A stretch of 64,000 nt of DNA, taken from contig CBDETK010000013.1 in assembly GCA_965242865.1 (NCBI GenBank), positions 4,352,001-4,416,000 on the forward strand, in the 5' to 3' direction. This document shows, piece by piece, positions 932 through 63,423 of this stretch. Source of the stretch: Candidatus Latescibacterota bacterium. Lineage in GTDB: Bacteria > Latescibacterota > UBA2968 > UBA8231. Both the position numbers and the translations under genes were made by a program. Position 1 is the first letter of the stretch, and each line of letters starts with the position of its first letter. The notes under the pieces were generated by a model. It saw nothing but the letters and a program-made list of their open reading frames with translations, was not told the origin of the DNA and searched no databases.

Positions 932-2500
932 ATGGAAGGCGACAAGCGAAAGATACTCTGGGCCGACGACGAGATTGACCTGTTGCGCGCACACCGCCGC
1001 TTTCTCGACGAAAGGGGGTACGCGGTGACGCCGGTGAGCAACGGCCAAGACGCCATTGCCCTGATTGCCCAAGCACCCTTTGACATCGTGCTGCTCGACG
1101 AGATGATGCCGGGGTTGGACGGACTTTCGACCTTGGAGCAGATCAAGCGGGCCGATCCCAACGTGCCGGTGATTATGATCACGAAGAACGAAGAAGAGCA
1201 CCTGATGGACGAGGCCATTGGTCGCCGCATCGACAACTACCTGACCAAGCCGGTCAACCCCAGCCAGATCTTCATGGCGTGCAAACAGCTCCTCGATGTG
1301 CGGCAGATTCGCCAGAGCCAAGCCGGGCAGCACTATGTCTTGCGGGCCGGCCAGATCCGCGACCAGCTTGCCGGGGCGACTTGGCAGACTTGGATCGACA
1401 TATACCGGCAGCTCTGCGAGTGGGACATTGAGGTGGCGCGCTTGGGCGATGGGGGGCTCGGGCAGATGATTGGGGATCAGCGCCGCGAATGCAACCGCCA
1501 GTTCGGGCGCTTTGTCGAGCAGCACTACGCCCGCTGGGTAGCGGACGAGGAGGACTCGCCGCCGCTGTCGGTGGATGTGGTGCCCGAGTTCGTGGTGCCC
1601 TATCTCGAACAGGGCCGGCAGGTATTCTTCATTGTGGTTGATTGCCTGCGCTTAGACCACTGGCTGGTGATGGAGCCGCAGTTGGCCGAGTATTTCAACA
1701 TCAAGCGCTCCTATCACTACTCGATTTTGCCAACGGCCACGCCCTTTGCGCGCAACGCCATTTTCAGCGGGCTGTTCCCCAAAGAGATCGCCGACAAATA
1801 CCGCACGCGGTGGCACGAGGCCCAAGACAACGAATACAGCCTCAACCGGCACGAGCACCAGTTCATTGACGACCTGATCCGCGACATGGGCGTCGCGCTC
1901 AACCCGGGTTCGCACTACGTCAAGGTGCTCGACACCAGCGAGGCCCGGAAATTGACCCGCAAGGTCGCATCGCTGGGCAAGTGGCCGCTCGTGTCGGTGG
2001 TGTACAATTTTCTCGACATGCTGGTTCACAGCCAAGCGCAGTCCGACCTGCTGCGGGAAATGGCTCCCAACGAGGCGGCCTTTCGCGCATTGGTGCAGAC
2101 GTGGTTTGGCAATGCGTCGCTGTTTGAGACCCTCAAGGGCATTGCTCACACGGACGCGGTGGTGGTGCTGACGACCGACCACGGCTCCATGCGCGGTACG
2201 CGCGCTTCCGTGGTACATGGCGACCGCAGCACGTCTCCGAGCCTGCGCTACAAGTACGGCCAGAATCTGCGCTGCGAGGAAAAGGACGCGCTGCTGATCG
2301 CCGACCCGGAGGCCTACGGGCTGCCTGCGACCGGCCTGGGGCACAGCTTCGTCATTGCCCGCGAGGACTTCTACTTTGTCTATCCGACCCAGTTCAACAA
2401 GTACCAGCGCCGCTACAAGGGCAGCTTCCAGCACGGCGGCATATCGCTGGAGGAAATGATTTTGCCCGTGGCGATCATGGAGCCCAAGGGGGGAAAGTGA
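932..2500 (+). CDS. porX: PorX-like response regulator: REC domain + PglZ alkaline-phosphatase-family domain
   Basis: N-terminal REC (WADDE, LLDEMMPG, ITK, YLTKP); PglZ motifs VDCLRLD, SILPTATPFARNAIFSG, TTDHG, FQHGGISLEEM; followed by tsaE as in Bacteroidota. Confidence 0.88.
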   Translation: MEGDKRKILWADDEIDLLRAHRRFLDERGYAVTPVSNGQDAIALIAQAPFDIVLLDEMMPGLDGLSTLEQIKRADPNVPVIMITKNEEEHLMDEAIGRRIDNYLTKPVNPSQIFMACKQLLDVRQIRQSQAGQHYVLRAGQIRDQLAGATWQTWIDIYRQLCEWDIEVARLGDGGLGQMIGDQRRECNRQFGRFVEQHYARWVADEEDSPPLSVDVVPEFVVPYLEQGRQVFFIVVDCLRLDHWLVMEPQLAEYFNIKRSYHYSILPTATPFARNAIFSGLFPKEIADKYRTRWHEAQDNEYSLNRHEHQFIDDLIRDMGVALNPGSHYVKVLDTSEARKLTRKVASLGKWPLVSVVYNFLDMLVHSQAQSDLLREMAPNEAAFRALVQTWFGNASLFETLKGIAHTDAVVVLTTDHGSMRGTRASVVHGDRSTSPSLRYKYGQNLRCEEKDALLIADPEAYGLPATGLGHSFVIAREDFYFVYPTQFNKYQRRYKGSFQHGGISLEEMILPVAIMEPKGGK

Positions 2501-2955
2501 AAAAGGTTTTCACCACGCGTTCGGCCGCTCAGACCCACGCGCTGGGGGCTGCGCTGGGGCGGTGCTTGGGACCGGGCGACGTGGTCGCCTTTCGCGGCGA
2601 CTTGGGCAGCGGTAAGACCTGCATGATCCAAGGCGTGTGCGAGGCGCTGCAAGTGGCCGATTACGTCACGAGTCCAACCTTCATCCTGATCAACGAATAC
2701 GCCGGCCAATGCAGGGGGCGCGAGCTGCCCGTCTATCACTTTGATCTCTATCGGCTGGGGGGCGTTGACCAGCTTGAGGAATTGGGGGCAGCAGAGTACT
2801 TTTACGGCCGCGGCGTCTGTCTGGTTGAGTGGGCCGAGCGCGCCGATGGTGCGTTGCCCGATAGATGCTGCCACGTGTGGCTAGCGTACGGCGGGGAGGC
2901 TTGCGAGCGGCGGATTACCTTGCAAGGAGCTGGGGTGGGCGAAATAGCGTTCTGA
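2497..2955 (+). CDS. tsaE: tRNA threonylcarbamoyladenosine biosynthesis ATPase
   Basis: GDLGSGKT Walker A, VTSPTF, HFDLYRL, VEWAER. Confidence 0.95.
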   Translation: MKKVFTTRSAAQTHALGAALGRCLGPGDVVAFRGDLGSGKTCMIQGVCEALQVADYVTSPTFILINEYAGQCRGRELPVYHFDLYRLGGVDQLEELGAAEYFYGRGVCLVEWAERADGALPDRCCHVWLAYGGEACERRITLQGAGVGEIAF

Positions 2956-2974
2956 GAATTAAAGGGAGGGGACT

Positions 2975-3703
2975 TTGCAGCGGCTAATAGTGAGCCTTTG
3001 CATGGCCGCGGGGCCGGCCGCGGCCGACTGGGTCGAGTTGACCCGCTTGATCGATAGCCCAACGGCTGGGTTGGTTGCCAAGGGGCAGTACGCGGTGAAG
3101 GCGCGCCTGTTTGCCAACGGGGGAGCTGTCGGGCGCTTGCAGGTGGGGGTGCTCAAGCGTCTGAGCGTGGGCGCGTCTTTTGGCGGCGAGCAACTTATTG
3201 GCACGGGCGTGGTCGATTGGTATCCGCGGGTGGGATTGGCGGCCCGCTGTCGGCTCCTCGAAGAGGGCTACACCTGGCCCGCGCTGGTCTTGGGCTTTGA
3301 TTCCCAAGGCGTCGGGCCGTATCGCGGCGCGCGCTACCAAGTCAAATCCAAGGGAATCTACTTGGCACTGAGCAAGAATTACACCTCAATCCTCGGCGAA
3401 CTCGGCGTCCACGCGGGCGTCAATCGGTCGCGCGAAGATGCCGGCGGCGGCGATTGGTCCGCGTGGTTGGGTCTCGACAAGAGCTTGAGATTTATGGCGC
3501 TGTTCGCCGAGTACGACTGGGGCCGCAACAACGGCCTACCGAACCAAGGCGTGGAGGACGGCTATTTGAACGTCGGCGGGGCTTGGACCGTAACGCCGCA
3601 GCTGCGAGTCGCGTACTATTTCAAAAACGCGCTGGAAAGCGATCACTTCGACGCCCAGTCCATTCGGGAGCTGTCGGTCACGTACAGGGGGAAATTGCGA
3701 TGA
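2975..3703 (+). CDS. Exported YjbH-like outer-membrane beta-barrel protein
   Basis: Signal peptide, LIDSPTAG motif, amphipathic beta-strands. Confidence 0.6.
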   Translation: MQRLIVSLCMAAGPAAADWVELTRLIDSPTAGLVAKGQYAVKARLFANGGAVGRLQVGVLKRLSVGASFGGEQLIGTGVVDWYPRVGLAARCRLLEEGYTWPALVLGFDSQGVGPYRGARYQVKSKGIYLALSKNYTSILGELGVHAGVNRSREDAGGGDWSAWLGLDKSLRFMALFAEYDWGRNNGLPNQGVEDGYLNVGGAWTVTPQLRVAYYFKNALESDHFDAQSIRELSVTYRGKLR

Positions 3704-9225: not shown

Positions 9226-12200
9226 AAGCTCCGTCCAAAGCTGAAGTGGAACTTGAAGTCCGAGAAGTTGCCCTGCATGTCCATCTGCCGGGCGAATTCA
9301 AAGTTCATCGGCAACAGGAAGTACACCAAGAGGCCGAAGCCGACGCTGGCGTGTATCTGCTGCGGGGAGGATGTAGGGTCGGTGGGAGCGGCGTGTGGAT
9401 CGCGGAAGGGCCACAGGTCGATTGCGTCGTCTTTGTTCCAAGCCATGCCCATATCGACAAACAGGCTGCCGTCCACCGCTGGAATCAGGAAGGTGCCGGG
9501 CCAGCCAAAGAGGATGCCGCGCACAAAGGGCACGCGCAGCTCGACATTGGTCAGCAAGACCCGGCTGCCGGTGAAGGCCGAGAACGGATAGCCGCGCAAG
9601 GGGCCGGTGTTGAGATTGAAGCCCGTGTAAAAGGGCAAGTACCAAATCGGCCCCCCTAAGTTGTATTGGAGGGCGTTGCGGCCCAAAGACCCCACGCCAT
9701 AAGCCCGCAGCCCCAGCACGGACCAACGCCCCAACCGCAAGTAATGGCGATAATCCAATTCGAGGTGCGAGAAAGAGCGCGAGGCCGAGCCGAGGTCGAG
9801 CGTCCGCCCCACCGAGAGGAAGTAGCGTTTGCCAGCCGTGGCCCCCAAGAGACCGTAGGTAATGGAGTCGTGGACGTAGGCGGTCTTGAACAGATGCGTG
9901 CTGGTAACAGAAGTGGAATCGGCTTCGTAGAAGGGACTGACCTGTTCTTCTTGCTCGCCGACGTACGTATAGCTCAGGTCGAGGCGGCGATAGAGATCGA
10001 GCGGGTAGCTGGCGTTGGCCAAGGCGCCGCGCTGCTGGAGACGGCTAATGCCCCGAGAGGGGGAGCGGCCTTGAACGATAAAGTTGCGGTTGTTGATGAA
10101 GTACTGGTTCCAATTGAAAATGGATGCGCGGTACGTGGGCCGCTTGCCGTAGTATTTGTAGTTGGCGGCAAAGTTGAAGTCGTTGCTGATGTCTTGGGCC
10201 GCCACGTAATCTGTGGCCAAGACCAGCGAGTGATTGCCCAAAAGATCGCTCATGCCGAGCTGGGCAATCGACGATAGAAACCCATCAAAATAGCCCATCT
10301 GCAAGGAGATGCCGTCAAATTCGAGCTTGGGGGTGTAGCGGCGTCGGCGCAGCTCCAATTCGCCGTCGGGGTCGAGCGGGACGGTCGCTTGTGGCTCTGG
10401 GGCTTCGGCCGGCGGCAGCGAGCCGCTGGCCCCGGCTAGGAGCACGGCATCGCCCGAAAGCGCCCGATCCTTCAGGGCCGAGACCTGCCCTAAGCCGGGG
10501 ACGCCGCCTTGGTCGGAGAGCGCGGCGTCGCCCTGTACCACGGGCCTCGGCGGCGGCTCTGGGGCGGGCGGCGCGGATTCAGCCTCGGCGGCGCGGGCCA
10601 GCAGGTGGGCGTCTTGGCGCTTGACCTCGGGCCATTCGGGCATGGCCATCCGGTAGAGATGGCTGCGGCCCTTGAAGTACGTGTTGAACACGATCTGCCG
10701 GCCGTCGGGCGAAAGGGCGGGATTCATAATGCCGCTGAGGCTGCGGGTTAGGCGAAATTCGCGGCCCTCGTCGAGGTGATAGACGAAGAGATCGTTGATT
10801 TTGTCGCGGGTGGAGACGAAGAGCAGCTTGTTGCCTTCGGGCAGCCACTGCGGCCACAGATCGTCGGTGGGGCTGGCTATGGCTGGGCGCGCCGCGTCCT
10901 CGGTTAGATCGTAAATTTTGATGTCGAACTGGTTGCGGTACTTGATGCTAAAGGCGATGCGCTGGCCGTCGGGCGACCAACTCGGGTGGTCTTCGCGCTC
11001 GGGCGTCCCGGTGAGCTGACGCCGCTCGCCGGTCTGCACGTCCATGAGGTAGAGATCGCTCTGGCCCTGTCCGGTGCCGATAAAGGCGAGTTGGCGACTG
11101 TCCGGCGACCAAGTTAGGCTCTCGACGAGATCCATATCGGGCATAGTCAGGGTCTGCACGAGCTCCTTGTCGTAGAGATCCCACAGCAGGATGCGGTCGC
11201 GAGGGCCTTCTTTGGCGACAAAGGCGATGGTCTGGCCGTCCTGTGCCCAAGCCACGGTGCCGCTGCCGATGCTGAGGTGATCGTAGTTGGCGGCGCGCAT
11301 GCTTGCGGTGACGCGCTCGACGAGCGAGGCGTCGCGCAGGCGGATGATATCTACGTGCTGCTCGATCCCGTCGGAGGAATGGACGGCGAGCATGTCGCCG
11401 CTGAGCGACCAGCAGGCGTTGGAGAAGCTGTGGGTATCGTCGTCGTCGCCTATTTTCTCGGCAAATTCAGAGGTGTAGTCGCGCGTCTGCAAGAGGGGCC
11501 AGTAGGTTTTGCGCATCTGGGCCGACCAGCGCTCGTCGAGGGTTTTCAAGTCCATGCCTATCAGGCGATCCATGAGCTTGTCGGTGTTGTGCTGGCTGTC
11601 CCACAGGCGGAGGATGCGGCTGATTTTTTCGGGGCCGTAGTGCTGGGCAATGTATTCCATGAGCGCGTGGCTCTGCTTGTACGCGAGGAACACGTTGCCT
11701 TGGCCCCAAGCCTGATTCATGGTTTCGAGGGGAATGAGGCCATCGGTGAGCACGGCGTCGCGGAGGACCATTTCATCGACCGTGTTGCGCCCCGGGGTGG
11801 TGTATTCGGCCATGCCCTCCATGAGCCAAGTGGGCGGCTGGGCAATTGGGCTGGTGATGCGGCGAATGGGGCCTTTGTGAACGATGTCGTACTGGAAGAT
11901 GTGGGTCAGCTCGTGGACGAGGACATTGCGGAATTCGTCGAGATCGCCGGCAAAGGGGACGACCATGCGGAAGCGTAGCGGCTCGGCAAAGCCGGCCACG
12001 CCGGGCGGCAGAAAGTCGGGGAAGATGTTGGTCTGCTGGAACTGGTAGTGCGACTGATAGATGACGACCGGCGGCCGGTGCGAAAGCTCGTGGTGTAGGA
12101 TTTGACTGATGTGATCGTACCCCTCTTCGAGGTACTCGATGGCCTGTACGGCCAGATTCTGGAATTCAGGCTCAAAGTGCAGCTCTATGTGCTCGCTTTC

Positions 12201-54849: not shown

Positions 54850-55620
54850 ATGCGGGTTTCGCGCATCTTACCGGCCTTACTGCTGGCGGCCTCCGTTGCC
54901 GCCGACGAGGTCCTCGTGCCGGCCGGTCCCTTCACCATGGGCATCGATCACCCGCGCGCCACCGACGAAAAGCCCAGCCGCCCAGTCTATCTCAGCGCCT
55001 TTTCCATCGACCGCTACGAGGTCACCAACGCCCGCTTCGCCGCCTTTGTCGCGGCCACCGGCTACCAGACAGACGCGGAAAAACGCGGCGCTGAAAGGGC
55101 CGATGGCATTAGCTGGCGTCAGCCCCATGGCCCCGGGTCGGCGGCCGCCCCAAGCCATCCCGTCGTCTATGTCAGTTGGCACGATGCCGAAGCGTATTGC
55201 GCGTGGCGCGGCGGCCGGCTGCCCACCGAAGCCGAGTGGGAAAAAAGCGCGCGCGGCCGCGATGGCCGGCTCTGGCCTTGGGGTGCGGCGTTTGCCGCTG
55301 ACCGCGCCAATCTTTGGGGCCCGGAAGACGGCTATGCCGAGTTGGCCCCGGTCGGCTCTTTTCCCGCTGGGGCCAGCCCGTACGGTGCCTTCGACATGGC
55401 CGGTAATGTCTGGGAGTGGTGCGCCGACTGGTACGACGCCACCTATTACGCCACCGCGCCGACCCAAGACCCGCAAGGGCCAGCGACTGGCCGCTTCAAG
55501 GTCTTGCGCGGCGGCTCGTGGATCAACCGAGGCCCCACCCTGCGCAGCATCAACCGCTTCGAGCTCCTGCCGGTAGAGCGCAGTGCCTACATCGGCTTCC
55601 GCTGCGCCCGCTCGCCATGA
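54850..55620 (+). CDS. FGE-sulfatase (SUMF1-fold) domain exported protein
   Basis: RYEVTNARF, HPVVYVSW, RLPTEAEWEK, DMAGNVWEW, RGGSW, GFRCAR; no catalytic Cys pair. Confidence 0.9.
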   Translation: MRVSRILPALLLAASVAADEVLVPAGPFTMGIDHPRATDEKPSRPVYLSAFSIDRYEVTNARFAAFVAATGYQTDAEKRGAERADGISWRQPHGPGSAAAPSHPVVYVSWHDAEAYCAWRGGRLPTEAEWEKSARGRDGRLWPWGAAFAADRANLWGPEDGYAELAPVGSFPAGASPYGAFDMAGNVWEWCADWYDATYYATAPTQDPQGPATGRFKVLRGGSWINRGPTLRSINRFELLPVERSAYIGFRCARSP

Positions 55621-57257
55621 CCCGGCTTATCGCGCTGGGCGTCGCGCTGTTAGCGGCCTGCGACGCGCCCGATCCCGTGCGCTTTGCCGAAGTGGGCACG
55701 GCCGCTGGCCTCCGCTTTGAGCTGCGTTCTGGCGGGCAGGTCAAAAACTACATCGTAGAGGCCAAGGGCGGCGGCGGCGCGTTTCTCGACTACGACGGCG
55801 ACGGTTGGCTCGACATCTACTTGGTCAACGGCTCGCGCCTAAAAGGCTATTCCGACTCAGCCCCGACCAACGCCCTCTACCGCAACCTAGGCGACGGCAC
55901 CTTTGAGGACCGCACCCGCTCGGCCGGGGTCGGCGATGCGGGTTGGGGCATGGGCTGCGCGGTGGCCGACTACGACCAAGACGGCGACCTCGACCTGTAC
56001 GTGACCAATTACGGCCCCAACATCCTGTACCGGAACGAGGGCCAAGGCCGATTCCGCGACGTCGGCCAAACCGCCGGCGTCGATCGGGCGGGCTGGAGCA
56101 CGGGGGCTAGCTTTGGCGACTACGATCTGGACGGCGACCTCGACCTCTACGTAGCCCAGTACTTGCACTTTGCGCCCGAGCGCGTTCCGCCCCGGGGCGG
56201 CATGTGGAAGGGGGTTTTAGTCTTTGCGGGACCATCCGGTCTTCCCGGGGCGCAGGATGTCCTGTACCGGAACGAGGGCCAAGGCCGGTTCCGCGACGTC
56301 ACCCGCCAAGCAGGGGTCAGTCAACGGACGCCGACCTACGGCCTAAGTGCCCTTTTTTGCGACTACGACCAAGACGGCGACCCAGACCTCTACGTGGCCA
56401 ATGACTCAGCCCCCAATTTTCTCTATCGGAACGAGGGAAACGGCCAATTCCGCGACGTCGGTGTGGAGGCGGGTGCTGCCCTCAGTGCCGAGGGCGGGGC
56501 GCAAGCCGGCATGGGCATCGCTTACGGGGACTGCGATGGCGATGGCGACGGCGATTTTCTGGTGACCCACTTTGAGGACGACTACAACACCCTGTACCGC
56601 AATCGCAGCGATGGGACCTTTGCCGTGGCCAGTGCTGAGGTCGGCCTCGCCGCGCCAAGCCTGCCCCACTTGGCCTTTGGCGCGTGCTTTTTCGATTACG
56701 ACAACGACCAAGACCAAGACCTCTTCGTCGCCAACGGCCATGTCTATCCCCAAATGCGACACCTGAACCCAGACGGGTACGCCGAGCCGAACCAGCTTTT
56801 TGCCAATCAGGGCCAAGCCGGGGCCTATCGCTTCTCAGAAGTTGCCGCCGGGGACCTAAGCCGCCCGGCCGTCAGCCGCGGGGTCGCCAAGGGGGACTAC
56901 GACAACGATGGGGATGTAGATGTTTTGGTCTGCAACCTCGACGGACCGCCGCACCTGCTGCGCAACGACGGCGGCAACCAGCGCAACTATCTGAGCCTGC
57001 GGTTGGTTGGCACCGCGTCCAATCGCGATGGCATTGGGGCGCGGGTCTCGGTCGTCAGTGGCGGGGTCGAGCAGATCGCCGAGCGGGTCAGTGGCGGCAG
57101 CTTTCTCTCGCACAGCGACGGGCGCGTCCATTTCGGTTTGGGCGCGAACACCGTGGCCGAGCGCGTTGAAATCCACTGGCCTTCGGGCCGCGGCCAGCGC
57201 TTAGAGGACGTGCCCGCGAATCAGTTCTTGGTGGTAGAAGAACCGGGGCCGCCCTGA
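55617..57257 (+). CDS. CRTAC1/ASPIC-UnbV FG-GAP repeat lipoprotein
   Basis: Repeated DYDxDGDLDLYV, LYRNEG; SNRDGIGARV, HFGLG, WPSG. Confidence 0.92.
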   Translation: MTRLIALGVALLAACDAPDPVRFAEVGTAAGLRFELRSGGQVKNYIVEAKGGGGAFLDYDGDGWLDIYLVNGSRLKGYSDSAPTNALYRNLGDGTFEDRTRSAGVGDAGWGMGCAVADYDQDGDLDLYVTNYGPNILYRNEGQGRFRDVGQTAGVDRAGWSTGASFGDYDLDGDLDLYVAQYLHFAPERVPPRGGMWKGVLVFAGPSGLPGAQDVLYRNEGQGRFRDVTRQAGVSQRTPTYGLSALFCDYDQDGDPDLYVANDSAPNFLYRNEGNGQFRDVGVEAGAALSAEGGAQAGMGIAYGDCDGDGDGDFLVTHFEDDYNTLYRNRSDGTFAVASAEVGLAAPSLPHLAFGACFFDYDNDQDQDLFVANGHVYPQMRHLNPDGYAEPNQLFANQGQAGAYRFSEVAAGDLSRPAVSRGVAKGDYDNDGDVDVLVCNLDGPPHLLRNDGGNQRNYLSLRLVGTASNRDGIGARVSVVSGGVEQIAERVSGGSFLSHSDGRVHFGLGANTVAERVEIHWPSGRGQRLEDVPANQFLVVEEPGPP

Positions 57258-57452: not shown

Positions 57453-58727
57453 CTACCAATAGCGCAGCGCGTCCGCAAAAATCCCCGCCAGTGCCTCGGC
57501 GTTAGCGGGGCGCGGCGAGAGCTTGGTCACCCGGTGCTGCGGCAGCGTGCCCTTGACCAGTGCCGGGATGTGCTGGGGGCCGTAGCCGAGCGCGCTGAGG
57601 CCGTTGGGCGCGTCGAGTCGGCGCATCAGCGCGACGATGCGGTCGGCCAAAATCGCGCCCGCGTCCTCGTCGTCAGCGCCGCGGCAATCGGCTCCCAAGA
57701 CCGCTGCGGCCCGCAGATGCCGCTGGGGGCTGGCCGGCGCGGTAAAGCGAAAAACGGCCGGCGCGTTGACGATCACGGCAAACCCGTGCGGCACCAGCGG
57801 GTAATCAACCGCGTATCCAGCCGGCACATAGCTTTCCACCATGCCAGCCACCGGATAGGACATGCCGTGCGGCAAGTGGACGCCGGCGTTGCCAAAACCA
57901 ATGCCGGCGAGGGCCGCGGCCAAGCTCATCGCGCTGCGAGCCTCGTCGTCGCTGGGGTCGGCCACGGCGCGGGGCAGAAATCGCGCCACCAACCGCAAAG
58001 CCTCCAACGCCCACAAGTCGCTGATGGGATTGGAGCCTTGGTAGGCCGGTCGCAGTTGGGGCCGGTCGGGGCGGGGACGTTGGTCAAACGGCAGGGCCGT
58101 GTACGACTCCAAGGCATGTGAGAGCACGTCGAGGCCGGTGGCCGCGGCCACCGGCCTCGACGTGGAGCGCGTGTTGTCTGGATCGACGATCCCCAGCGTT
58201 GGGCGCATATAGCGGTGGGCCATGCCGGTCTTGGCCTTCATCGCGAGGAAGTCGAAAATCGCCACGCCCGTCGTCTCGCTGCCGGTGCCAGCCGTGGTGG
58301 GAACGGCGATGAGCGGCTTGAGCGGGCCGGGCACGGGCACCCCCCGGCCAATTGGCGCGTTGACGTACGCGAGGAAGTCGGCCGGATACGTGGTGTACAC
58401 GTTGGCCGCTTTGGCCGTGTCCATCACCGACCCGCCGCCGACTGCGACAAACCCGTCAAACCCTTGTTGGGCGTACGCAATCGCGGCCTTGAACGAGGCG
58501 TCGGTCGGCTCGACGCGCACTTGGTCGAACAGCGCGTACTCGACGCCCGCCTCTGCAATGGCCGCCAAGGCTGTCTGCACCGGCGCTTGCGCACGCAAGT
58601 TTGGATCGGTCAAAACCAAGACCCGCTTCAGCCCCCAGTCCTTTAGGTCCATGCCGATCTCCTGAGTGGTGCCCGGGCCAAAGCGGATGTTGGAGGTGGC
58701 GATTTCGTAGGCCGTGTCACAAAGCAT
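57453..58727 (-). CDS. Hydroxyacid-oxoacid transhydrogenase (Fe-ADH family)
   Basis: GGGSVMDTAK, PTTAGTGSETTG, RPAYQGSNPISD, FGNAGVHLPHGMSYP, HRVTKLSPR. Confidence 0.9.
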   Translation of the reverse strand: MLCDTAYEIATSNIRFGPGTTQEIGMDLKDWGLKRVLVLTDPNLRAQAPVQTALAAIAEAGVEYALFDQVRVEPTDASFKAAIAYAQQGFDGFVAVGGGSVMDTAKAANVYTTYPADFLAYVNAPIGRGVPVPGPLKPLIAVPTTAGTGSETTGVAIFDFLAMKAKTGMAHRYMRPTLGIVDPDNTRSTSRPVAAATGLDVLSHALESYTALPFDQRPRPDRPQLRPAYQGSNPISDLWALEALRLVARFLPRAVADPSDDEARSAMSLAAALAGIGFGNAGVHLPHGMSYPVAGMVESYVPAGYAVDYPLVPHGFAVIVNAPAVFRFTAPASPQRHLRAAAVLGADCRGADDEDAGAILADRIVALMRRLDAPNGLSALGYGPQHIPALVKGTLPQHRVTKLSPRPANAEALAGIFADALRYW

Positions 58728-58798
58728 GGCGTCGTCCTTTCGGGCGGGGAATATAGGGTTGACGCGAAGGGGGAGGCAAGGCTAGTTAAAAGAGCTTT
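58693..58798. repeat. Left copy of 106-bp direct repeat (transhydrogenase 5' end + divergent promoter)
   Basis: Matches 62876-62981 with 7 mismatches; 78-bp core 58721-58798 has 2. Confidence 0.95.
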
Positions 58799-58861
58799 CA
58801 TGGCCTCTCAGCACCTGCGATTACTAACGCCGCCCGTCGCCAGACTATTCCCGCTTTTCGC

Positions 58862-60652
58862 GAAAAGGGGGCACTCGCGGCCAACTTCCGGGGCTATGAC
58901 ATTTCGCCCGATATGGTGCGGCTGTCGCTGGTGAATCTGTATCTGCACGGCTTTGTCGAGCCGCATATTGCCGAATACGATACCTTGACCAGCGAGGAGC
59001 GTTGGAACGAGTATGCCGACGTGATTTTGGCCAATCCGCCGTTTATGTCGCCCAAGGGGGGCATTCGCCCGCACAGCCGCTTTTCGGTCCAGTCCAAGCG
59101 CAGCGAAGTGCTGTTTGTCGATTACATTGCCGAGCATCTGACGCCTGCGGGTCGGGCGGGGATCATCGTGCCGGAGGGGATTATCTTTCAGAGCCAGCGT
59201 GCCCACAAGCAGTTGCGAAAGATGCTGGTGGAGAATTATCTGGTCGCGGTGGTCTCGCTGCCGGCGGGGGTGTTTCAGCCGTATTCCGGGGTTAAGACTT
59301 CCATCCTGATTCTGGACCGATCGCTTGCGACAAAGGCCGATCACATCGCCTTTTTCAAGGTAGAAAACGATGGGTTTGATTTGGGGGCGCAGCGGCGAGA
59401 GATTGTGGAGAATGATTTACCGCAGGTGCGGGCGGAGCTTGGCGAATACTTGCGCCGTTTGCACACAGGAGAATCTGTGGCAGACTTCGCGCCGACGTTG
59501 GGACTGGTCGGTGAAAAAGAAAGAGTTGCGGAGGGTGGGGAATACAATCTGAGTGGGGAAAGGTATCGGGAGAGTGGAGCAAGACAGTCTAATTGGCCGG
59601 TGGTCTCGTTAGGAGAGCAAGAGATTTTCAGCATTGAAAGTGGTGGCACACCCAAGTCAGGAATCGAGGAATACTGGGATGGTGGCATACCTTGGTTCAC
59701 GCTGGTTGATTTGCCAGCAGGCGATTTCATCACAGAAATTACCGACACGCAGAGGACGATAAGCGAGAAGGGCTTGCGGAACTCGGCTGCAAAGATGCTT
59801 CCTGCCAACTCCGTTGTTGTTTCATCAAGAGCGACTATTGGTCGAATCGGTATCAATCGCATCCCTCTCGCCACCAACCAAGGCTTCAAAAGTGTCGTCA
59901 TCAAAGATACAAATAGAGCCATTCCTGAATACGTTGCATTGGCATTGACGAAATTGGTGCCGACAATGCAAGCCCAAGCCAGCGGGTCAACGTACAAAGA
60001 AATTATCAAGTCAAGGTTCAGTGAACTAAGCATCCCTCTGCCGCCGCTGGAAGTACAGCGAGAAATCGTCGCGGAGATTGAGGGCTATCGGCGGGTGATA
60101 GAGGGGGCACGGGCGGTGGTGGAGAACTGGCAGCCGCAGATTGCGATTGATCTGGGGTGGCCGATGGTGGCGCTGGGAGAAATCATCTCTTTGGAATACG
60201 GCAAATCACTCAAAGCCGAAAACCGAATTGAAGGACCATATCCGGTATATGGATCAAATGGAATCGTCGGTTATCACAATGAATGTTTGATTGAGGGACC
60301 AGCCATCATTGTAGGACGAAAAGGTTCTGCGGGTGCCGTCAATTTTTGCGAGACGCCGTGTTATCCAATAGATACGACATTCTTTGTCCGTATCAGAGAG
60401 CGACAGCGGCTTGATGTCCTATTCTGCTACTATCAGATGCTTGAGCTTGAGTTGGACAAAGTAAATGTTCAGTCTGGTGTTCCGGGTCTAAATCGGAACG
60501 ATGCGTACCGCAAAACGATAGCTGTACCGCCCCTTAAAACTCAGCAAGCCATCGTCGCCGAGATAGAGGCGGAACAGGCATTGGTGGATGGCAACCGAGC
60601 GTTGATCGAGCGACGCGATGTGGTGGGACGGGTGTGGGGGGAGGGGGAATAG
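58862..60652 (+). pseudogene. 5'-truncated Type I HsdM-HsdS fusion
   Basis: Begins mid-MTase (GYDISPDMVRL), has NPPF but no SAM-binding motif I; two TRDs (SGGTP..TNQGF..LPPLEVQREIV; YPVYGSNG..GRKGS..VPPLKTQQAIV); no hsdR. Confidence 0.8.
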
Positions 60653-60685
60653 ACTAAAAGCTGATTGGGAAGTTGATCAGTTCGG

Positions 60686-61657
60686 TTAATGGTGTTTTGG
60701 CAGGTGTTTTTGAATCTCTTGGAAAATCTCACGCATACCACGCGGCAGATCTTGGCATATCAACGGCTCGGATTTCTCCAGCAACCGACATATTCTGTAT
60801 CGGTCACATAGGATACAGTAGTTGGTACGTGACGGATCTTCCCGCCATTGTGCGTGGATGATACGTGGAAAATGAGGAATCAATAAAAAATTTGTATGAT
60901 CTGTATTTAACCGCATGACCCCCGATAAAGCATGGCGAGATTGGGCTTCATGTTTTTTGGTCCACCATTCTTTTGCCACTGTGCATTGAGCGAAAGCAAA
61001 GAATGGATACTCCAATTTGTCCTCAAAAGGACAAATGGCAATCAAATCAATACCAAATTCGAGTTGCGTGTTGGGCAGTTTCTCTATTTCCTCTTGATAC
61101 TCTTGGGCGTTTAATTTTCGAGCCAAGGCCGGAATGGCCTCGCGTGCGGACCACCCAAGATTTTTTCTATCCTCGCTGTTTTGACTAAACAGAAAAACCT
61201 CTGCCCAATCGGGAAACAACGCCCGCATCGCCTCTTTGCAGAGATTTTCAAACTCTATCCTCAGATTATGCCGCAAAGATGGAATCTGATTGTGACATGA
61301 ACAGGCCAGCAAGAACAGATACGACAAATAGTGTTTCTTGGACGTTTGAGGTGCAAACAGTACTTCGCCACCGTCTTGTCTGAAAGGGTAAGTGTCCCCC
61401 AACCATAATGCGCGTTTTTTGATAAGATCCATCGCCTCTTCAAACTTTGCATTAAGATCATCAACTTGCTCGCCTTGTAAAAAATTATCCTCTTCCTCTG
61501 AAAAAATCTCTCTTTGAACTGCGTCAAATTCTGCGCGTGTGAAACGACCACCATGGTCGTTGTCAGGGAATGCGACAGCCAACTCAATGCAGTCGGTAAA
61601 ATCAACGACATCTTTGACTATTTTTTGACTCAGTTCAAAATCAATCATTGTGATCAA
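60686..61657 (-). CDS. Hypothetical protein, putative PD-(D/E)xK-like nuclease
   Basis: YPF...YLFLL, FENLC, GIDLI...PFED...AQC...W..K pattern; overlaps upstream ParB gene. Confidence 0.6.
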   Translation of the reverse strand: MITMIDFELSQKIVKDVVDFTDCIELAVAFPDNDHGGRFTRAEFDAVQREIFSEEEDNFLQGEQVDDLNAKFEEAMDLIKKRALWLGDTYPFRQDGGEVLFAPQTSKKHYLSYLFLLACSCHNQIPSLRHNLRIEFENLCKEAMRALFPDWAEVFLFSQNSEDRKNLGWSAREAIPALARKLNAQEYQEEIEKLPNTQLEFGIDLIAICPFEDKLEYPFFAFAQCTVAKEWWTKKHEAQSRHALSGVMRLNTDHTNFLLIPHFPRIIHAQWREDPSRTNYCILCDRYRICRLLEKSEPLICQDLPRGMREIFQEIQKHLPKHH

Positions 61658-62720
61658 CCTTTAAGTCTAAACGGTCAAGTGTGACATCAAGCACTTTCAC
61701 TACTTCTTGGACTTTCTTTATAGCCTCTTGGTCATCGGGCGTCACAGAATGCAGGTTTGAGTTTGCTTGCTTGATATGTTCTATGGTTAATATTATATCT
61801 TGTAAAAACTCCTTCCTGTCATCTACCGTATCACTATAAGCACTATCCAATGACACGCCTTGCCGAAACTTTTCTAGTGTGTTTGGGTTTTCTATTACCT
61901 CACTCAATTTGGGGATGTTGCGAGACTCGCCAAGACGTGTGGAACCCTGACTATCTTTTTCAAACATCCATTTGGTAAGTTCTTGAAGAGGTTCTTTCTT
62001 TAAGGATTTTGGATTGGCAATGGGGTATGTTGCACTACCGTCCTCTCCCCTGACGCCGACAAATGACGCGATTACCACATTCCCAATCGCAGTGTAGAAC
62101 ACGCCGAACTGAAAACTTTCTTCGTCTAAGTCACGAATGTCAAAAAAGTCGCGTTCCTTAATGGCTTCGTACGCTGCCAAAGCATCCAGATTTCGTCGGA
62201 CAGAATTGCTTTTACTCCCAATTTCACGAGCAATTTCCTTACAGCGGTCTTCTGGTTTACCTTGTGCTTGATCGAATAACAATTTCAAGTATCGCGCCTT
62301 TGCCAAAGGATCCCAGCGTTGGCTTCCAGAAATATGGCGAAAGCCCAGATATTGCAGGGTATCATCCCTTGAGTTGACTATATATGCTGGGATTCTAGTT
62401 GGCTTACTTTCAGCTTCTTCTGAGACTTTTGTGATGCTGCGGCGAGCACCCACCAATTCCGGATCTTGCAACAGTTTCAATGCTGCCAGTCTGCGGTTTC
62501 CCTCTAAGACTGTGTATTTGTCGTCTTCAGCAGGAGTTACGACGATGGCTTCGCCCGGGAAAAACCCGTTCTCTCCAATCGAAATCATCAAGTCCTCAAT
62601 GCCGGTTTTTGCCGCCAAATACTTGATAATGTCGCTTTCTTTAGTACCTACCGTAGTCGGCAGCCGCGGGTTTTGCTCGTCAAACTCGATCTGGTCAATG
62701 TTGAGTGTCTTAAAGTTCAT
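61641..62720 (-). CDS. ParB/sulfiredoxin-like N-terminal domain protein
   Basis: DEQNPR, SIGENGF, VLEGNRRLAALK, RHISGSQRWDPLAKARY. Confidence 0.85.
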   Translation of the reverse strand: MNFKTLNIDQIEFDEQNPRLPTTVGTKESDIIKYLAAKTGIEDLMISIGENGFFPGEAIVVTPAEDDKYTVLEGNRRLAALKLLQDPELVGARRSITKVSEEAESKPTRIPAYIVNSRDDTLQYLGFRHISGSQRWDPLAKARYLKLLFDQAQGKPEDRCKEIAREIGSKSNSVRRNLDALAAYEAIKERDFFDIRDLDEESFQFGVFYTAIGNVVIASFVGVRGEDGSATYPIANPKSLKKEPLQELTKWMFEKDSQGSTRLGESRNIPKLSEVIENPNTLEKFRQGVSLDSAYSDTVDDRKEFLQDIILTIEHIKQANSNLHSVTPDDQEAIKKVQEVVKVLDVTLDRLDLKVDHND

Positions 62721-62871
62721 GAGAATACCTCTCTTGGTAGGGCTTCAAAAATTTGTCGGAAGATCATCGGCGGCACGGCATTGCCAATGACCTTGTATTT
62801 ACTCATAGACCTCTTTGGCATAGGCCAGAATATCGTTTGCCATCAGAATCTCGCAGCCTGAATCAATCAGC
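62717..62871 (-). pseudogene. Scar of a C5-cytosine methyltransferase (N- and C-terminal fragments joined out of frame)
   Basis: LIDSGCEILMANDILAYAKEVYE (motif II-like) then, in another frame, SKYKVIGNAVPPMIFRQIFEALP (motif X); TGA overlaps ParB ATG. Confidence 0.8.
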
Positions 62872-62875
62872 CTTA

Positions 62876-62981
62876 GAGGCAGCGATTTCGTAAGCCGCGT
62901 CAAAAAGCATGGCGTCGTCCTTTCAGGCGGGGAATATAGGGTTGACGCGAAGGGGGAAGCAAGGCTAGTTAAAAGAGCTTT
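62876..62981. repeat. Right copy of 106-bp direct repeat
   Basis: Duplicate of 58693-58798; minus strand encodes MLFDAAYEIAAS vs MLCDTAYEIATS. Confidence 0.95.
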
Positions 62982-63015
62982 GAGAGGAGAGATCGTCTTG
63001 ATTGAACGAGCAAAT

Positions 63016-63423
63016 ATGACGCCCGAGGATGTGGAGGAAGGGCGGCGGTTGGCCTTGGATTTTGGCAAGCTGCGGCGGGCGGTAGCCGGGGGCGAAGGCT
63101 TGGTGCCGGTGGCGGTGCAGGACGCCGACAGCGGCGAAGTGCTGCTTGTGGCATACGCCAATGAAGCGGCCCTCAACTATGCGCGGCGGGCGGGCGTGGC
63201 CGCGTTTTGGAGCACGTCGCGCAACGAGCTGTGGGTGAAGGGCGCGACCTCGGGCAATGGGCTCAAACTGGTCGAAATCCGCGTCAACTGCGAGCAAAAC
63301 TCGCTGCTGTATCGCGTCCGCCCCCAAGCGGGCGGGGCCTGCCACACCCGGGACGCGGCCGGTCGGGCGCGGTCCGGGTGTTACTACCGGCGGCTCGTGG
63401 GAGACGGGCTCGAACCCATTTGA
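63016..63423 (+). CDS. hisI: Phosphoribosyl-AMP cyclohydrolase
   Basis: GLVPVAVQD, FWSTSRNELWVKGATSGN, NCEQNSL, GACHT, CYYR. Confidence 0.92.
   Translation: MTPEDVEEGRRLALDFGKLRRAVAGGEGLVPVAVQDADSGEVLLVAYANEAALNYARRAGVAAFWSTSRNELWVKGATSGNGLKLVEIRVNCEQNSLLYRVRPQAGGACHTRDAAGRARSGCYYRRLVGDGLEPI

Follow-up and report, generated by a model that had tools for sequence, protein, structure and literature searches.

A ParB-like protein and its predicted nuclease partner, stripped of their C5 methylase, in a Latescibacterota genomic island

In modification-linked defence, a ParB/Srx-fold nucleotide module coupled to a nuclease is found in GmrSD, SspE, DndI and BrxU (DUF262 together with DUF1524 HNH), as set out in the available text of PMC11662687. 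A gene pair of like logic is described here from a 64,000-nucleotide (nt) stretch of DNA of a Candidatus Latescibacterota bacterium (GenBank assembly GCA_965242865.1, contig CBDETK010000013.1, positions 4,352,001 to 4,416,000), called the window below; the host genome measures 6.0 Mb in 13 contigs. The pair encodes a ParB-like protein of 359 amino acids (aa) and a nuclease-like partner of 320 aa, and beside it lie two scraps of a C5 cytosine methylase gene (dcm). From sequence comparison and structure modelling, we lean towards regarding the two proteins as the putative subunits of a two-subunit restriction enzyme, belonging to a cassette of restriction-modification (R-M) type that is here stripped of its methylase, because the pair is obligate and coupled, its second member has a predicted restriction-nuclease fold and its first is of ParB type, and because recurrent, interchangeable modification genes accompany the pair in phage slots and defence clusters. 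The cassette is widespread yet unnamed. The genes concerned are the following.

60686 to 61648, minus strand: partner gene, nuclease-like, 320 aa, PD-(D/E)xK / Mrr-MspJI-like fold predicted; frame intact
61641 to 62720, minus strand: ParB/Srx-fold gene, 359 aa, with the N-terminal nucleoside triphosphate (NTP) pocket motifs D..NPR and EGNRR, a probable central helix-turn-helix (HTH) and a helical tail; frame intact
62717 to 62806, minus strand: C-terminal scrap of the C5 methylase with motif X and GNAVPP; its stop overlaps the ParB start
62803 to 62872, minus strand: N-proximal scrap of the C5 methylase, 23 codons from just after motif I; its frame differs from that of the C-terminal scrap

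The ParB-like and partner genes overlap by 8 nt, and the methylase stop and ParB start overlap as ATGA. An alternative TTG start of the partner gene would give 323 aa (60686-61657), the 320-aa ATG form being identical to the cluster representative P0001, and a 34-aa open reading frame (ORF) at 62717-62821 (minus strand) spans the C-terminal methylase remnant. A preliminary description of this DNA, made from the letters alone, had reported three overlapping minus-strand genes in AT-rich DNA, a methylase surviving as two short fragments, and intact frames for the ParB protein and its partner. The ORFs and the low guanine-plus-cytosine (GC) content of 58799-62872 agree with the first of these statements, alignment to 13 C5 methylases and the deletions relative to a sister genome bear out the second, and both frames are indeed intact, with LEGNRR present in ParB and GID...FAQCT...K in the partner.

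In the proposed mechanism, the cassette would be a mobile three-gene unit consisting of a methylase, then the ParB-like protein, then the nuclease. The methylase would mark host DNA, the ParB-like protein would be the DNA-reading subunit, nucleotide-switched by means of an NTP pocket and an HTH as in the ParB/KorB/Noc clamps, and the 320-aa partner, whose PD-(D/E)xK fold comes closest to the catalytic domain of MspJI/Mrr, would be the subunit that cuts. Together, the two would act on unmarked DNA; complex formation, NTP dependence and the cutting of unmodified DNA are what we infer here. In the window genome, the cassette is decaying, dcm having lost about 1 kb in two deletions and the neighbouring hsdM-hsdS gene about 0.67 kb.

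The two proteins and their nearest described relatives

The ParB-like protein belongs to a family of 2240 proteins (E <= 1e-3) and matches phrog_3694 strongly (E 1.8e-100). In 21 diverse sequences of this family D14, N17, P18, R19, E57, V71, E73, G74, N75, R76, R77, H129, W136, G168 and F205 are invariant, and the profile of these 21 relatives matches the H. pylori ParB structure 4umk (E 3.5e-4), EGNRRLAA being aligned to GERRLRA, the GERR box. A weak match of the profile to the lambda cI HTH was obtained at positions 143-208 (E 0.086), and the protein itself matches TIGR00180 at E 2.1e-5 (24.4 bits against a cut-off of 58.45). An NTP-pocket domain, a probable HTH and a helical tail would constitute the layout of ParB-type clamps, and nucleotide binding is predicted. 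With the cytidine triphosphate (CTP) clamps ParB, KorB and Noc, the protein shares the box residues and the order of N-domain, probable HTH and helical C-terminus. Compared with ParABS, on the other hand, there is no ParA beside the ParB-like gene, and what follows this gene in 61 of 62 metagenome loci is the nuclease-like partner.

The partner gave no Pfam match, no PADLOC family at E <= 0.1 and no match in the plasmid collection, and a metagenome scan with the alignment of close partners found no relative; it matches phrog_3984 at E 8.9e-31. Its family comprises 161 proteins at E <= 1e-3 by word-indexed search and, by full profile search, 1130 cluster representatives (50% identity) at E <= 1e-3 and 635 at <= 1e-10, with lengths of 117-370 aa among the matches listed (150 of 1130). 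Two YcaO models of NCBIfam (E 5.6e-4 and 0.021; 18.5 and 13.1 bits against cut-offs of 700 and 900) were set aside as noise.

An AlphaFold model of the partner built from 120 diverse sequences reached a predicted local distance difference test (pLDDT) of 94.4 and a predicted template modelling score (pTM) of 0.93; it replaced an earlier, poor model from 27 close sequences (pLDDT 65, core 195-256 below 50, nothing sensible in Foldseek). In the model, residues 1-145 are helical. The ten best rows of the Foldseek comparison with PDB are all restriction or nicking endonucleases (MspJI, BsaWI, HindIII, AspBHI and N.BspD6I), the best of them being MspJI 4f0q_D with E 7.4e-3, probability 1.00 and a template modelling score (TM-score) of 0.32 for the query and 0.24 for the target; with a best TM-score of 0.32, only the core is thus shared with known nucleases. 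In BFVD, the first Foldseek rows are named 'Restriction endonuclease' or 'Mrr-like' (E 0.019-0.076). At the profile level, MspJI is also the sole PDB match of the partner at E <= 1 (E 0.16), in an alignment of ssgDgGlDlVa...fgQCa with SSGDGGVDFIG...LGQAK which places GDGGxD...GQ(C/A) on the catalytic stretch. The partner is therefore predicted, from model and profile, to have a PD-(D/E)xK / Mrr-MspJI-like restriction-nuclease fold. Two named neighbours in the Atlas, HaeII (0.82) and BsobI (0.79), lie below 0.9 and are leads only.

Across the 120 partner sequences, E22, R79, Y87, P88, Y110, F133, D201, Q221, R283 and R285 are invariant, and K231, C222 and D282 are conserved in at least 90%. The Asp and Gln of a D...QxK-type site are thereby retained, and a conserved lysine, K231, is found ten residues beyond Q221, where it may substitute for the missing triad lysine.

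MspJI and AspBHI (PDB 4f0p, 4f0q, 4oc8) are the best structural neighbours of the partner, in whose family the Asp and the Gln are invariant. Compared with the catalytic D...Q-x-K triad of MspJI, D201 and Q221 are present and the lysine position is occupied by T or A in the partner family. Moreover, the N-terminal half of the partner is modelled as an all-helical domain and is probably no reader of modified bases, the chains being covered only partly by Foldseek, and the partner family is encoded beside a methylase, whereas MspJI is encoded alone. In comparison with GmrSD, SspE, DndI and BrxU, the present system consists of two separate proteins, its nuclease is of PD-(D/E)xK rather than HNH type, the NPR and GNRR boxes are canonical, and the genes are usually linked to a methyltransferase; neither the ParB-like protein nor the partner has a Pfam match to HNH or DUF1524.

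PADLOC matches were obtained for the ParB-like protein only over part of the profiles. PD-Lambda-5_A models match residues 1-146 (best E 1.1e-26; profiles of 428-613 positions), and PDC-M38A matches residues 38-342 (E 2.9e-30) over profile positions 58-356 of 715. The authors of PD-lambda-5 describe it, in the available text, as an 'RM+Abi' system of prophages that is compact and includes a methyltransferase (Vassallo et al. 2022, PMC9519451), and the available part of 10.1101/2024.10.26.620412 lists it among HEPN-containing systems. Identity with PD-lambda-5 was rejected: protein A is matched only at residues 1-146, and protein B was not found, the partner being without a PADLOC match and the island offering no further gene as a candidate. 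In addition, no HEPN domain was seen in the window pair, a comparison in which the PD-lambda-5 layout is that of text descriptions. PDC-M38 is an unpublished PADLOC candidate, no mention of which was found in the literature; its A profile of 715 positions is matched only at 58-356.

The pair and its modification genes in relatives

The ParB-like gene and the nuclease gene seem to form an obligate pair. Among 15 close loci from GTDB genomes (Latescibacterota, Dehalococcoidia and Chloroflexota), dcm, ParB and partner are co-directional in 13, with overlaps of 4-8 nt; the remaining two are a ParB-partner pair in which no C5 methylase was found (L018) and a lone partner fragment (L023). Vsr (PF03852), which is expected where 5-methylcytosine (5mC) is made, lies downstream in 5 of the 13 dcm loci. 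At the level of the phylum, a family member was found in 18 of 168 Latescibacterota genomes. ParB stands directly upstream of the partner in 12/12 distant phylum loci, whose neighbouring methylase is of the C5 class in 3, Dam-type D12 in 4 and N6_N4 in 2, and was not found in 3 (assigned by Pfam in L056, L057, L060, L061, L063, L065 and L066, and by likeness to L056 and L057 in L058 and L059).

Eighty metagenome loci were found with the ParB profile. At least 600 nt are available downstream of ParB in 62 of them, and the partner is there in 61, the exception (L128) having a truncated ParB ORF. Modification genes were counted in the 28 metagenome loci in which the pair is flanked on each side by 1300 nt or more, the other 52 being left out. 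Twenty-two have one: a C5 methylase in 15 (own hidden Markov model), D12 in 2, N6_N4 in 3 and dnd genes in 2. The remaining 6 have none among the neighbour families listed (25 of 46), so that a rare methylase family could be hidden there; a motif screen gave no further candidate. The two dnd loci read DndB, pair, PAPS-reductase/DndC-like and AAA_23 (DndD-like) in L135 (822-7201), and AAA_23 (DndD-like), DndE-ATPase and pair in L093 (817-4489). In three methylase-less loci, the gene just upstream of the pair encodes another restriction-related protein or a PD-(D/E)xK protein, namely a protein with a DpnII/MboI-type restriction endonuclease domain in L084 (2124-2936) and, by likeness, L090 (3581-4402), and a DUF4420 PD-(D/E)xK protein in L115 (3502-4461).

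In P2-like phages (Escherichia vB_EcoM-12474 series, Yersinia phage HQ103), ParB and the partner are found beside replication gene A, together with a convergent C5 methylase that belongs to the same family. This order of ParB, partner and convergent dcm was observed in L024, L025 and five of six IMG/VR loci, the sixth ending at a contig edge. In the HQ103 record (L025), the 314-aa C5 methylase ORF at 2335-3279 is orthologous to the cassette dcm and is unannotated as deposited. In two Latescibacterota genomes (L057, 220-9303, and L059), a Dam-type cassette interrupts a type I R-M system, with hsdS on one side and hsdR on the other, and adjoins a VapBC-like pair.

The cassette resembles an ordinary type II R-M system with a C5 methylase and Vsr in its adjacent, coupled methylase and nuclease genes, in the Vsr of 5 of 13 close loci, and in the loss of the nuclease with retention of the methylase in two relatives. 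A methyltransferase adjoining the nuclease gene(s), by which type II is recognised, was found in 13/15 close, 9/12 distant and 20/28 metagenome loci, whereas in the window the methylase is deleted. It differs from ordinary type II in that the restriction part would be two proteins, one of them of ParB fold, in that methylases of three classes, and also dnd genes, accompany the pair, and in that the pair outlives the methylase in the window. No description of a ParB-nuclease-methylase cassette was found in the texts of the literature, figures and supplements apart.

These comparisons also bear on the remaining statements of the preliminary description. It had expected linkage of homologues to dcm or defence loci, which is what the 13 of 15 close loci with dcm and the P2-like phage, dnd and type I R-M contexts display; it had called the partner nuclease-like, in keeping with the model and its ten best PDB rows (all at E > 0.001); and it had matched the genes to no named system, which holds given zero PADLOC families for the partner, partial matches for ParB and no description in the literature. 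Its interpretation is supported at the level reachable by comparative genomics, with 'nucleotide-switched' and 'methylation-gated' as the parts that we infer.

Methylase losses in the window and its sister genome

Both methylase fragments were aligned with 13 full-length orthologous C5 methylases. The fragment at 62803-62872 (LIDSGCEILMANDILAYAKEVYE) matches the region right after motif I and the fragment at 62717-62806 (ending in KYKVIGNAVPPMIFRQIFEALPREVFS) matches the C-terminal motif X region, everything between the two being gone, the PCQ, ENV and QxRxR motifs included. The C-terminal scrap is seen weakly by Pfam PF00145 (E 0.0091, 15.9 bits against a cut-off of 22).

In the sister locus L019 (genome G139, same genus, flanking genes about 92% identical), the island carries a whole 341-aa methylase and a whole 848-aa hsdM-hsdS, and the deletions were defined by BLASTN of the window against it. 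The internal deletion of dcm removed 733 nt (L019 4042-4774), with a junction overlap of 4 nt at window positions 62803-62806. A second loss of 294 nt (L019 3678-3971) took the first 44 dcm codons and 161 nt upstream, and the fragment left between the two, 62803-62872, is 98.6% identical to L019 3972-4041. The hsdM gene has an internal deletion of about 673 nt (L019 8559-9231; junction overlap 9 nt), 58799-58869 corresponding to L019 9232-9302 and 58861 onward to L019 8558 downward. The fourth stretch that is absent from the window relative to L019 is a hisI copy. The features around the operon are the following.

57453 to 58727, minus strand: Fe-alcohol-dehydrogenase gene (adh)
58690 to 58798, no strand: direct repeat R1, at the left island border; the authentic 5' end of adh together with the DNA upstream of it
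58800 to 58934, plus strand: ORF of 44 aa, leftover of the original hsdM-hsdS start, severed by the internal deletion of about 673 nt
58913 to 60652, plus strand: truncated hsdM-hsdS fusion, 579 aa, type I-like N6-adenine methylase and specificity subunit
62873 to 62981, no strand: direct repeat R2, at the right island border; duplicates the DNA upstream of adh together with the first 15 adh codons

The repeats, of 109 nt each, are 93% identical at a spacing of 4183 and border a low-GC island of 4.07 kb (58799-62872; GC 0.41-0.52 against 0.60-0.70 in the surrounding DNA). Over 59500-62999, the GC content is 0.41-0.50. R2 is oriented into the dcm'-ParB-partner operon. The hsdM-hsdS fusion lacks about 270 N-terminal aa that are present in relatives (825-880 aa, with 825 aa for the full-length gene of L009); its match to the N6_Mtase profile begins only at position 90 of 311, and Methylase_S is matched at E 4.7e-38 (Pfam). 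Both island methylases, dcm and hsdM-hsdS, are thus dead through internal deletions. No hsdR was seen among the island ORFs. Upstream of adh, a gene at 55416-57257 encodes a 613-aa protein with FG-GAP/ASPIC-like repeats, identified by eye from its translation.

Decay in L019 is the reverse of that in the window: its methylases are whole and its nuclease-like gene is broken by a 235-nt deletion (window 60869-61103 absent), which leaves ORFs of 200 and 66 aa. Of other relatives, the partner gene is split in L010 and L023 is a lone partner fragment. Among nine close Latescibacterota copies, two have lost the nuclease, one has lost the methylase and one consists of a nuclease fragment alone. In both the window and L019, the dcm end of the operon is faced by a copy of the DNA upstream of adh that is directed into it. 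The genes on either side of the island are hisI and adh in the window, but an isochorismatase-like gene and hisI in L019. Both sisters have the island bracketed by copies of the adh 5' region (in L019 at 3538-3677 and 9836-9949), and hisI is found on opposite sides. The arrangement may derive from an ancestor with a duplicated segment of hisI and adh upstream region on both sides, followed by reciprocal loss.

In order to place these junctions in other material, contigs from four public runs, all of them short, were aligned on 58600-63100. In run X5, a sponge metagenome from a study separate from that of the best-matching runs, a contig of 1695 nt aligns ungapped to 61523-62872 with 19 differences in 1350 nt, and so runs across both the internal dcm junction and the complete ParB gene. 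The other 345 letters of this contig align in part from 58655 onward, as might be expected of a 5' end like that of L019. A second X5 contig, with 6 differences, extends over 60578-61525, and its gaps all fall at 60613-60616, outside the partner ORF. In run X1, the alignment of one contig stops at 62872 and its continuing letters read as methylase motif I, so that a form with the 5' dcm part, or a relative of it, is present in that sample. No piece among those listed from the four runs bridges the 62872/62873 junction, nor does any span the island. That a strain about 1.4% diverged has the same internal loss from dcm argues that the methylase-less state has been tolerated for some time.

Why the pair outlasts its methylase

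Several results weigh against a two-subunit restriction enzyme. A classical restriction enzyme should not outlive its methylase, and here the pair is intact: of the columns that are at least 97% conserved, the partner departs from 1 of 67 and ParB from 1 of 88, within the range of relatives, 94/115 of which (partner) and 90/118 (ParB) have at most one such departure. The second strain in X5, with its 19 differences in 1350 nt, shares the internal dcm deletion and has an ungapped ParB gene. The window genome contains nine other full-length C5 cytosine methylase genes and a fragment on contig C8, in which no close paralogue of the lost methylase was found, the best being 37% identical over the N-terminal half only. 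As a set for one genome, nine extra full-length C5 methylases are unusually many. Concerning the proteins, the ParB_N profile (PF02195) is sub-threshold (E 0.015, 15.8 bits against a cut-off of 26.3), none of the nuclease matches by structure or profile in PDB and BFVD reaches E 0.001 and the best TM-score is 0.32, and the canonical lysine of (D/E/Q)xK is absent, the family having Q-C-T/A with T in the window and A in most relatives. Finally, no modification gene was within reach in 6/28 metagenome loci (for the families listed), 3/12 distant and 1/15 close loci.

The tolerance of the pair by its host may have one of three explanations: the pair may be silent, its sites may be covered by another methylase, or it may not attack unmarked host DNA. 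In the last case, the pair would be modification-licensed. Such a defence, of the kind of SspE and DndI, is judged unlikely here; in it, the ParB-like protein would sense the host mark (5mC, N6-methyladenine (m6A), N4-methylcytosine (m4C) or phosphorothioate) as a loading or activating signal, the nuclease would then attack the invader, and loss of the methylase would disarm the system. The intact methylase-less pair of the window, the diverged X5 strain with the same internal deletion, decay in both directions among the nine close Latescibacterota copies, and the location of the pair within dnd clusters (L135, L093) are consistent with it. So is the weak Pfam match of the ParB-like protein to GmrSD_N (DUF262, PF03235; E 0.015, 15.8 bits against a cut-off of 33.2). 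However, the protein has a canonical ParB-type GxRR box and not the DUF262 signature, both Pfam scores being sub-threshold, and one or two methylase-less lineages are equally explicable as silent copies. Translational coupling of methylase and nuclease genes, together with Vsr, is typical of ordinary type II systems, which also counts against licensing. By analogy, the phosphorothioate-sensing effectors SspE and DndI join a ParB-superfamily DUF262 NTPase to a nuclease domain (available text of PMC11662687 and PMC13251355), and SspE is reported to be modification-licensed in the available text of the latter. A bolder form of the proposal, also rather doubtful, is that a ParB-type clamp would serve as a reading subunit pluggable into at least four chemistries (5mC, Dam-type m6A, N4/N6 methylation and phosphorothioation) and would need the host mark as a licence rather than be blocked by it; licensing by the host mark would explain the intact pair in two diverged methylase-less lineages.

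A somewhat smaller chance is given to the pair being dead cargo, unexpressed and surviving only as the deletions are recent, in an island that would be a non-functional remnant. This explanation is in line with the four separate losses of the island against L019 (at the 5' end of dcm with 161 nt upstream, inside dcm, inside hsdM, and of the flanking hisI copy), as it is with the repeated decay of the cassette among relatives. A sigma-70 scan, with a crude E. coli-type consensus that says little for Latescibacterota, likewise found no minus-strand promoter-like site in 60500-63100. On the other hand, the R2 copy of the adh upstream region and start codon is directed into the operon and could drive its expression, and neither gene has an excess of changes at conserved positions. 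The internal dcm deletion is, moreover, common to the strain with 19/1350 differences, in which ParB is ungapped and the gaps near the partner (60613-60616) lie only outside its ORF; the methylase-less state is therefore not brand new.

A Type IV methylation-dependent nuclease, suggested by the closest solved fold being the catalytic domain of the modification-dependent MspJI and AspBHI, or a non-defence function as a partition or regulator protein with a repair nuclease, suggested by the classical role of ParB proteins in partition, is very improbable, since it would be suicidal for a nuclease to cut DNA marked by the methylase of its own overlapping operon, the match to MspJI covers only part of the chain (TM-score 0.32 for the query, 0.24 for the target), no ParA-like or other partition gene is among the island ORFs, and the cassette occupies the P2 accessory slot beside gene A and lies within type I R-M and dnd clusters.

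If the proposed two-subunit restriction enzyme is correct, it would be an undescribed restriction-enzyme architecture in which the nucleotide switch of ParB, known from chromosome partition, is used in order to control a nuclease. The nuclease family is common, with 1130 clusters; it occurs in several phyla and in P2-like phages of enterobacteria, and its members are currently annotated only as 'hypothetical' or 'ParB N-terminal domain' proteins. The window, without methylase and with the pair intact, and its sister L019, with intact methylases and a broken nuclease, constitute a natural experiment, and with these reciprocal losses it becomes directly testable whether the mark is a protection against the enzyme or a licence for it.

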